A DNA stretch of 13,455 nt from a virus. How positions within the stretch are numbered: the first letter of the stretch is position 1; every line of letters begins with the position of its first letter. Both the position numbers and the translations under genes were made by a program. The notes under the pieces were generated by a model. The model saw nothing but the letters and a program-made list of their open reading frames with translations, ran no database searches and was not told the origin of the DNA. Below are positions 8,635 to 9,627 of the stretch, in pieces. The DNA is taken from the UHGV virus genome UHGV-0114979; one strand, written 5' to 3'.

Positions 8635-9627
8635 TCAATTGCTTATTTTATTGTATATTTTTATTGTTGTAAAATATGCGACAAAGAAACATAAGAAAGT
8701 GTATAATATAGTGTCTATAGAGTTATGCAGATACACCTTCAAACCAATCATTTTGAAAGATGAATAAATAAATGTTTTAAGCATTTGCTCTGTTCCGCAA
8801 AGCACTAGAGTTGATTGCCCTATTAATATAACTTGCTTTATCTTTATGCGCTTTGCAATGGTAATGTTTGGGATAAATAGCGCTGCCGTTATAATAAACG
8901 ATGCAAGTATTTTTAAATATTCGTTTTTTATTCCATTATATATTGAGGCTACCCCATAAAAATAAACATAAATAAATAACGACATCGACAATGAGCAAAT
9001 TATGTAAGAGGTTATTTTTGATGTTAGGTTGCTATTATATTCTTGTGGCTCTTTAATATAACAGGAAAGGTATGCGCCCAAAGCATAATAAGCAACATAC
9101 CTTAAAGCGCTGTCAATGTTAAAAAACAACTTTGGCTGAATACCTATTTTCATAATTGAAGAAAAAAAGAATATTGCAATGCATGTTATGAAAATAAGAT
9201 GCCTATTCTTTATTATAAGCTGTATAAATGAGTGCATCATTATAATAACAAACAAACATGGAAGAAACCAAAGTGATGCAGCAAATATGTGGTTTCTGAT
9301 TCCTGGTATTATCTGGCTGGCAAGCTCTCTTACCTGAGGGAAGTCATAATTATAGTATAGAGAAAAGAAAATAAGGGAAATAAGCGAGAATGTAAAATAC
9401 GGTATCAGTATCCTTTTTGAGGATTTAATCGCTATAATATTAAAATCATATAGAGAAGAGCATTTTTTAAAAAAAATCCCGGAAATAAAAAAGAATAACG
9501 GGACGTGAAATGAAAACACAAAAGGATATAACTGCTTTGCATTATCGCCAAAGTGTCCTAAGTAAATCCAAAATATGGCCACTGCCTTTAATGAATCAAT
9601 CCATTCTAAACGATGGTTGGCATTCAT
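8635..9627 (-). CDS. Acyltransferase-3 family integral membrane protein, probable O-antigen acetyltransferase (serotype-conversion type)
   Basis: 330 aa, highly hydrophobic with multiple predicted transmembrane segments. The N-terminal signature HRLEWIDSLKAVAIFWIYLGH fits the acyltransferase-3 family R-x(~10)-H motif. Very AT-rich: a sampled 60-nt line is about 30% G+C, against about 50% in the ejection genes. RBS AGGAG is 5 nt upstream of ATG 9627. The position next to the tailspike and att mirrors the oac gene of phage Sf6. Confidence 0.8.
   Translation of the reverse strand: MNANHRLEWIDSLKAVAIFWIYLGHFGDNAKQLYPFVFSFHVPLFFFISGIFFKKCSSLYDFNIIAIKSSKRILIPYFTFSLISLIFFSLYYNYDFPQVRELASQIIPGIRNHIFAASLWFLPCLFVIIMMHSFIQLIIKNRHLIFITCIAIFFFSSIMKIGIQPKLFFNIDSALRYVAYYALGAYLSCYIKEPQEYNSNLTSKITSYIICSLSMSLFIYVYFYGVASIYNGIKNEYLKILASFIITAALFIPNITIAKRIKIKQVILIGQSTLVLCGTEQMLKTFIYSSFKMIGLKVYLHNSIDTILYTFLCFFVAYFTTIKIYNKISN

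Follow-up and report, generated by a model that had tools for sequence, protein, structure and literature searches.

The window analysed here is a stretch of 13,455 nucleotides (nt) from virus genome UHGV-0114979, an ENA metagenome contig (ERZ1755950 NODE_661). It belongs to a P22-like temperate phage, of which it represents the right-hand end of the late region. Between the tailspike gene and the attachment site the window carries a gene for an acyltransferase-3 (AT3) protein. The gene probably encodes an AT3-only inner-membrane O-acetyltransferase for lysogenic conversion by a P22-like Escherichia coli phage, with an O163/OX21-type O-antigen as the acceptor. The O-antigen reading is strengthened because the enzyme and the receptor-binding domain (RBD) of the adjacent tailspike diverge together, because a 58%-identical homologue sits in an O-antigen-type gene cluster, and because the complete-genome carriers share one rare host genotype. 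Phage AT3-only O-antigen acetyltransferases are already known as a kind, and this subfamily has no characterised member closer than 36% identity. What goes beyond the routine is the co-inheritance of RBD and acetyltransferase across phage types, the clear boundaries of the cassette that holds them and the link to O163/OX21. Phage-encoded O-antigen acetylation alters serotype, vaccine epitopes and phage susceptibility, and the host lineage includes a Shiga-toxin-producing E. coli, negative for the locus of enterocyte effacement, from a patient with haemolytic-uraemic syndrome. The features on which the argument rests are as follows.

8635 to 9627, minus strand: AT3-only acyltransferase gene, putative O-antigen O-acetyltransferase (ATG start, 330 amino acids)
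9633 to 9637, minus strand: Shine-Dalgarno sequence AGGAG, 5 nt ahead of the ATG at 9627, read from the sequence
8591 to 8633, no strand assigned: bidirectional intrinsic terminator of the tailspike and acyltransferase genes (terminator scan and RNA folding)
6363 to 8564, plus strand: P22-type tailspike, head-binding domain and beta-helix RBD (Pfam Head_binding and Pect-lyase_RHGA_epim)
9628 to 10049, no strand assigned: non-coding spacer upstream of the acyltransferase gene, with only short open reading frames (ORFs) present
6348 to 10101, no strand assigned: mobile cassette of tailspike, acyltransferase, spacer and a stub of about 50 bp from the 3' end of intS (from a blastn comparison between the window and the prophage of E. 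coli JNE082640)

An intact AT3-only gene

An initial annotation of the window had placed an AT-rich gene for a multi-pass membrane AT3 protein at 8635 to 9627. The ORF is present exactly there, on the minus strand, with 330 codons. Its guanine-plus-cytosine (G+C) content, given earlier as about 30%, measures 0.307, against 0.43–0.50 in the phage genes on either side; the tailspike gene is intermediate in its receptor-binding part (0.35–0.39). Its setting was also described correctly. The gene faces the plus-strand tailspike gene convergently across 70 bp and adjoins the attachment region, with attP about 800 bp away and the integrase gene starting at 10656. Compared with a 72%-identical homologue, it has a ratio of nonsynonymous to synonymous divergence (dN/dS) of 0.12 (dS 1.5), and a second pair gives 0.13. 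The acyltransferase is therefore a real gene and not a chance ORF, and as judged from these ratios it is kept by purifying selection. At least 17 contigs encode the identical protein, and the ORF is intact at every locus examined.

The product is an AT3 protein over its full length. Pfam Acyl_transf_3 (PF01757) matches residues 8–318 on profile positions 2–322 of 326, with an E value of 1.9e-20 and 73.7 bits, where the curated gathering cut-off is 31 bits; all 374 of 374 homologues are AT3 proteins as well. This is the single Pfam domain, with no match to SGNH, and the protein ends at residue 330, past transmembrane helix (TMH) 10. An AT3-SGNH enzyme of the OafA/OafB type was considered and ruled out by the 330-residue length, the lack of an SGNH domain and the end of the protein after TMH10.

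A survey of 31 AT3 carbohydrate acetyltransferases, of which 30 had been characterised by experiment, identified the residues invariant across the set and defined the R/K-X10-H motif (PMC7448272). All of the invariant residues are kept here (H25, F45/F46, G50 and G184). The R/K-X10-H motif of TMH1 is formed by K14, which is at least 90% conserved, and H25, which does not vary among 61 homologues. The FFXISG motif of TMH2 reads FFFISG (F45-F46-F47-I48-S49-G50), with F45, F46 and G50 invariant, and the conserved glycine of TMH6, G184, is invariant too. Invariant or nearly invariant residues specific to the subfamily include W9, P76, R111, N112, W120, D172, S173, G270, C277-G-T-E280 and K284. There are ten hydrophobic helices, and the Lys/Arg-rich loops at 54–71 and 259–263 fit a topology with both termini inside. 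An AlphaFold2 model made with the 61 homologues as input (predicted local distance difference test, pLDDT, 92.9; predicted template modelling score, pTM, 0.91) has the ten-helix transmembrane acyl-CoA transferase fold, with HGSNAT and GWT1 as fold relatives.

The acyltransferase and the adjacent RBD co-diverge

Head_binding covers residues 1–113 of the tailspike (E 6.5e-67), followed by a pectate-lyase-like region; the RBD begins at about nt 6708. Homologous RBDs, alignable to that of the window over about 600 residues, lie beside acyltransferase homologues at loci whose tailspikes are built differently at the N-terminus. For four such loci (L005, L007, L010 and L113), identities to the window are given below.

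L005: acyltransferase 72%, RBD 67%; tailspike of 834 amino acids with a T7-tail-like N-terminus
L007: acyltransferase 56%, RBD 47%; tailspike with a P22 head-binding N-terminus
L010: acyltransferase 57%, RBD 47%; Tail_spike_N tailspike, beside a lambda-J-like gene
L113: acyltransferase 56%, RBD 47%; tailspike of another Tail_spike_N type

We compared acyltransferase identity with the identity of the adjacent RBD over nine loci, giving 36 pairs, and the two are correlated (Spearman 0.80). The loci fall into three clades. Clade A comprises the window and the four loci above (acyltransferase 56–83%, RBD 45–90%), clade B comprises L111 and L016 (51% and 43%), and clade C comprises L019 and L023 (46% and 52%). 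Between clades, acyltransferase identity is 36–51% and the RBDs are unrelated. Four kinds of tailspike N-terminal anchor are shuffled over the three clades: A and C both contain the P22 head-binding domain as well as the T7-like type, and A and B both contain each of the two Tail_spike_N types. The anchors thus do not track the clades, and the unit of inheritance is therefore the RBD plus the acetyltransferase, re-fitted to different virions. Within this AT3 subfamily, the clade of the adjacent RBD can be predicted from that of the acetyltransferase and vice versa, so that one gene can help to annotate the glycan specificity of the other.

More distant relatives were sought in other collections. 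A scan of IMG/VR gave eight loci only, all distant, and five of six further IMG/VR relatives directly adjoin a tailspike. Tail-fibre genes adjoin both a 41%-identical E. coli homologue and OacD of phage SfII. A scan of one genome per species gave no relative above 46% identity, and the distant ones are mostly orphan chromosomal genes. In a metagenome-assembled genome of Pseudescherichia (L028, 4986–7031), two AT3 genes of the family stand in tandem on the chromosome.

The RBD also has relatives in myoviruses. Its identity is 68% with a tail protein of the Enterobacter phage Arya (L004, 3886–6327) and 52% with one of vB_EcoM_JN03, a 158-kb myovirus of E. coli O157:H7. Both tail genes lack an adjacent acyltransferase, and the RBD thus also circulates without its partner gene.

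The O163/OX21-type O-antigen as likely acceptor

The closest non-phage homologue is an AT3 protein of Xenorhabdus doucetiae (P0008), 58% identical over the full length. Its gene is the last of an O-antigen-type polysaccharide cluster. Upstream of it lie genes for a glycosyltransferase, a wzy-like protein, manC, manB, a further glycosyltransferase, fnlA, fnlB, fnlC and a wbuB-like family 4 glycosyltransferase (GT4), and downstream lie trmL, cysE, gpsA and secB. The trmL-cysE-gpsA-secB locus is where related Morganellaceae usually have their O-antigen genes.

On the E. coli side, the acyltransferase gene was found in 2 of 5426 complete genomes, those of JNE082640 and FORC_041. JNE082640 is typed OX21:H19 (PMC10793325, where the typing method is not stated). 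Its galF-gnd cluster contains manC, manB, wzx, wzy, two glycosyltransferase genes, fnlA, fnlB, fnlC, a GT4 gene and wbuC, and its wzx and wzy are labelled "O163 family". In their common part this cluster (L103) and that of Xenorhabdus (L101) are syntenic and homologous gene for gene, with identities of 84% for fnlA, 64% for fnlB, 74% for fnlC, 54% for the GT4, 59% for manB, 41% for manC and 32% for wzy. The E. coli O163-type cluster has wbuC at the position of the Xenorhabdus AT3 gene. The O163-type wzy is rare, being present in six of the 5426 complete genomes, and both carriers of the cassette are among the six, at 100% identity. Together, the cluster synteny and the rare wzy genotype point to the O163-type O-antigen, with N-acetyl-L-fucosamine (L-FucNAc) and mannose, as tailspike receptor and acetyl acceptor.

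O163 and OX21 have essentially identical gene clusters, yet are defined as separate, cross-reacting serogroups (PMC4732683). An obvious candidate for what sets them apart is the prophage acetyltransferase. If this is true, O163/OX21 would be a simple case of a prophage gene separating two serogroups with one O-antigen gene cluster.

Tailspike and acyltransferase move as one cassette

A 3.75-kb cassette containing both genes is 98.4% identical between the window and argW-integrated E. coli prophages of JNE082640 (L001) and FORC_041 (L104). Its left end lies 15 bp upstream of the start codon of the tailspike gene, and its right end about 50 bp into intS from the 3' end. Outside 6348–10101 no match was found between the window and the JNE082640 prophage, also not in the 9 kb of late genes on the left-hand side. 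The presence of this cassette in two backbones with different integration sites indicates recent exchange of the pair via conserved joints, and the case illustrates movement by recombination in short conserved joints. A megablast search of the acyltransferase region against the phage collection gave no near-identical phage record; only the integration module matched.

The right-hand joint is a short remnant of an integrase gene.

10050 to 10101, minus strand: 3'-end stub of an intS-type integrase gene, a mosaic joint (92.7% identical to the 3' end of Sf6 int)

Similarity to Sf101 and mEp234 starts at this stub. It is also present in L019 and L020, in Sf6, in Salmonella P22-like prophages and in about 1600 complete E. 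coli genomes. The stub marks the joint between differing tailspike/conversion cassettes and differing integration modules.

The initial annotation had likened the gene order to that around oac of Sf6. Both E. coli prophages, whose copies of the cassette are 98–99% identical, do have that order (tailspike>, oac<, intS<, argW). The window departs from it: attP lies between the acyltransferase gene and int, whereas in Sf6 attP lies beyond int. The earlier argument from base composition to recent acquisition likewise divides in two. Recent exchange is borne out by the 98.4%-identical cassette in two unrelated backbones. The low G+C content is not evidence for it, since every member of the subfamily has 27–33% G+C, in loci of 43–53% G+C and even at saturated dS.

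Comparison with known enzymes and phages

A protein search (tblastn, threshold 1e-5) of 50,697 phage records gave one match, the SfII acyltransferase, at 36% identity and 96% coverage (E 4e-28). This enzyme is OacD, which 6-O-acetylates the N-acetylglucosamine of the O-antigen (PMC9558356). OacD is the closest characterised relative and is similarly AT3-only, with a reduced RXXR motif, and encoded beside the tail genes of a temperate phage. SfII differs in being a myovirus in which oacD neighbours a gtr cluster and genes for tail-fibre assembly, not a tailspike gene. At 36% identity, the sequence comparison is too distant for the acceptor sugar and position of OacD to be transferred to the window enzyme.

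The protein is not close to that encoded by Sf6 oac, the gene whose arrangement the initial annotation had invoked. Direct comparison gave 26% identity over 226 amino acids (E 1e-7), and Oac was absent from the tblastn matches at 1e-5. Orthology to Oac (OacA) was ruled out on these two grounds and by the lack of a common PHROG family. The proteins are alike in being AT3-only, about 330 amino acids long, and in having FFxISG, the TMH1 histidine and the TMH6 glycine. They differ in that oac has 42% G+C against 31% for the window gene, and the O-antigen and tailspike RBD are not the same. Acetylation by Sf6 Oac blocks the phage's own endorhamnosidase (PMC9558356).

Phage Sf101 is close to the window in another part. 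Its integration module (window 10050–12084) is 97.5% identical at the DNA level, and an AT3 gene occupies the same slot, between tailspike and attP. The cargo differs, and OacB of Sf101 has no significant pairwise similarity to the window acyltransferase. Salmonella OafA and OafB share the AT3 domain and O-antigen O-acetylation, and OafB of BTP1 protects from a phage tailspike. They differ in being AT3-SGNH fusions of about 600–700 amino acids with an 11th helix and a GG-F/Y-XGV-D motif. Moreover, oafB carries Dam/OxyR phase-variation signatures, whereas the window gene has no upstream GATC sites. The Xenorhabdus gene differs from that of the window in being chromosomal, co-oriented with biosynthesis genes and not phage-borne.

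An analogous pairing is present in CUS-3, a P22-like prophage that encodes both a surface-polysaccharide tailspike and an acetyltransferase, NeuO, for the same polysaccharide, the K1 capsule. NeuO is a soluble hexapeptide-repeat enzyme that is phase-variable via a repeat tract. The logic is analogous but there is no homology, and the window has no repeat tract.

Expression signals

The terminator has a GC-rich stem (8598–8605/8619–8626) between the convergent stop codons, flanked by an A-run and, on the opposite side, by a T-run. It folds at -15.0 kcal/mol on the plus strand and -17.1 kcal/mol on the minus strand (z -4.6 and -3.7), and none of 200 shuffled sequences was as stable. A similar bidirectional terminator is annotated in Sf6. 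No GATC (Dam) site occurs between 8510 and 10281, and no repeat tract was found in or ahead of the acyltransferase gene; there is thus no phase-variation signature.

The promoter of the acyltransferase gene should lie within the spacer at 9628–10049. A perfect TTGACA can be seen by eye at 9807–9802, with a weak -10 element, and we claim no promoter there. A conserved upstream leader ORF was also considered and ruled out, as the upstream regions of the homologues are unrelated save in close pairs.

Part of the spacer, 9845–10040, is the decayed 3' remnant of a small gene that neighbours intS in other prophages; it matches, at 80.7%, the 3' end of such a hypothetical gene in E. coli S163-2. The gene is intact in that strain (L012), with intS on one side and a DinI gene on the other, and is followed by a gene for a 631-amino-acid protein of the acyltransferase family. 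The slot downstream of intS seems to gather differing AT3 cargo genes.

Proposed function and its alternatives

By analogy with the AT3 family (PMC9558356, PMC7448272) and the fold relatives HGSNAT and GWT1, we infer acetylation, seroconversion and superinfection exclusion, and this supports in essence the way in which the initial annotation had read the gene. In a lysogen, the enzyme would take an acetyl group from cytoplasmic acetyl-CoA. The likely donor site would be formed by Lys14 and His25 of TMH1 together with the basic residues K71 and R72 at the cytoplasmic start of TMH3. The acetyl group would then pass via the helical bundle to a sugar hydroxyl of an O-antigen unit or polymer at the periplasmic face. 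A fused SGNH domain would not be needed for this, and no SGNH partner is encoded nearby. The acceptor would most likely be an O163/OX21-type O-antigen, which is also the glycan most plausibly bound by the phage tailspike. Acetylation would alter the serological epitope. It would also be expected to make binding or cleavage harder for the cognate tailspike, resulting in receptor-level superinfection exclusion like that of Sf6 Oac and BTP1 OafB. RBD and acetyltransferase constitute one portable cassette and are swapped jointly between phage backbones, by recombination in conserved flanks: to the left the head-binding domain or the start of the gene, to the right the 50-bp intS stub.

A wider hypothesis is tentative, and we regard it as possible at best. 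RBD and AT3 enzyme might form a co-evolving "recognise and mask" cassette that moves as a unit between temperate phages of podovirus, siphovirus and T7-tail type, each acetyltransferase clade being matched to the glycan of its partner tailspike. In E. coli such a cassette might acetylate the O163-type O-antigen and could be the difference between O163 and OX21.

Several observations count against the preferred reading, that of an O-antigen acetyltransferase, or limit its support. The 36 pairs of the co-divergence comparison are phylogenetically non-independent, and the association with host O-type comes from two complete genomes that are possibly related by descent. NCBIfam and PHROG scans assigned the acyltransferase to no family. 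A sequence-profile search of the PDB gave no match and no solved AT3 structure; only the fold comparison was informative. The remaining points favour particular alternatives. One of these is that the enzyme acylates another envelope glycan, such as colanic acid, group 1/4 capsule, enterobacterial common antigen or peptidoglycan, and that the tailspike targets that glycan. The N-proximal half of the tailspike does match a PHROG family labelled with colanic-acid degradation activity, and CUS-3 has a capsule-specific tailspike alongside an acetyltransferase for the capsule. Moreover, AT3-only proteins act on enterobacterial common antigen (WecH), poly-N-acetylglucosamine (IcaC) and other polymers (PMC9558356). 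However, most of the PHROG match comes from the common head-binding domain and from a pectate-lyase region of generic type. The closest chromosomal homologue stands in a wzy-containing O-antigen-type cluster at trmL-cysE-gpsA-secB, the complete-genome carriers have one rare O-antigen cluster in common, and the nearest characterised enzyme, OacD, acts on O-antigen. We therefore consider another glycan unlikely. Similarly improbable, in our judgement, is that the O-antigen is acetylated for a different benefit, namely protection from other phages or antibodies, or that the tailspike tolerates or even prefers the acetylated form. Co-divergence of RBD and acetyltransferase fits any model with one shared glycan and does not imply antagonism, and O-acetylation is immunodominant in Salmonella and Shigella (PMC9558356). 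Against this stand the precedents of Sf6 Oac and BTP1 OafB, in which acetylation hinders the resident phage's own tailspike (PMC9558356); masking also accounts for the lasting linkage of a receptor-modifying gene to the RBD.

The gene could instead be inert cargo in E. coli, silent or inactive, and hitch-hike with the tailspike by proximity. A promoter scan upstream of the acyltransferase gene found no minus-strand match of at least 9/12. No convincing sigma-70 promoter is thus at hand, and we therefore infer expression in the lysogen. With 31% G+C, a very low value typical of H-NS-silenced DNA, the gene may be silenced by H-NS. The RXXR motif, which is essential in Oac, OafA and OafB and has been called "highly but not absolutely conserved", is degenerate, its position at the cytoplasmic start of TMH3 holding only K71-R72. 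In the P22-like phage Kapi1, over-expression of an acyltransferase-like ORF in the same slot caused no visible change in lipopolysaccharide (LPS) (10.1101/2021.04.09.439263), although LPS gels may fail to resolve acetylation. The RXXR position varies within the subfamily (KR, IK, TK, KN and KK), and SfII OacD, a proven enzyme, carries a likewise reduced motif with a single Arg. Inert cargo is hard to reconcile with a dN/dS of about 0.12 over deep divergence, an ORF intact at all loci examined with every invariant AT3 residue retained, a good Shine-Dalgarno sequence and a terminator of its own. The linkage has, in addition, survived at least four swaps of the tailspike anchor domain. This explanation is very unlikely.

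Integration site and remaining features of the window

The integration region has the following features.

10656 to 11834, plus strand: tyrosine integrase of the Sf101/mEp234/phage-2851 type (Pfam Arm-DNA-bind_3 and Phage_integrase)
10429 to 10458, no strand assigned: attP crossover region of the phage-2851/sbcB-dacD type (from the ends of integrated copies)
10352 to 10374, no strand assigned: two arm-type repeats, TGTGTACCAAA and TGCGTACCAAA, in the P arm of attP
10603 to 10624, no strand assigned: two arm-type repeats, TGTGTACCAGA and TGTGTACCAAA, in the P' arm of attP

The integration module is 97–98% identical at the DNA level to those of Sf101 and mEp234. Integrated copies (L105–L107) match the window at 99.3–99.8% up to base 10458 and then continue as host dacD. 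At the left ends of Shiga-toxin prophages the match to the window begins at 10429, and the annotated attP core of mEp234, of phage-2851 type, maps to about 10430–10442. In isolate assemblies the prophage adjoins host dacD at the sbcB-dacD site. As the match stops at 10458 and host DNA follows, the acyltransferase gene is the final one of the prophage, with attR 831 bp away. The four copies of TGTGTACCAAA, with one or two mismatches, form two tandem pairs on either side of the crossover, which lies at or before 10458, and are probably the arm-binding sites of the integrase.

A 100-amino-acid ORF at 10082–10384 on the minus strand was rejected as a gene. Scans with Pfam, NCBIfam and PHROG gave no match to it, its sequence overlaps the arm repeats of attP, and it is probably non-coding. 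In some phage records it is labelled hypothetical, UmuD-like or S24 peptidase. In Erwinia sp. P6884 (L024, 2650–6044), a 38%-identical homologue of the acyltransferase lies near sbcB (exonuclease I), in the chromosomal neighbourhood where integrases of the window's type have their attachment site; it may be a prophage relic.

The late genes to the left of the tailspike are these.

71 to 1321: injection protein
1318 to 3150: injection protein
3450 to 4499: P63C-domain ORF, 349 amino acids
4515 to 4769, minus strand: Arc-like ORF
4843 to 5031, plus strand: Arc-like ORF
5252 to 6184: Ant
5214 to 5281, minus strand: full-length sar antisense RNA (Rfam RF00262, 94 bits, E 1.7e-19)

The sar RNA overlaps the start of ant, and together with the Arc-like ORFs and ant it makes up a complete P22 immI-type region. 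Early-left genes follow beyond the integrase. Between the injection genes and immI, 3168–4499 holds an 87-amino-acid ORF (PHROG 21338, to which that database assigns no function) and the P63C ORF. This segment is missing from the otherwise similar prophages L105–L107 and is thus a second variable insertion in the late region.

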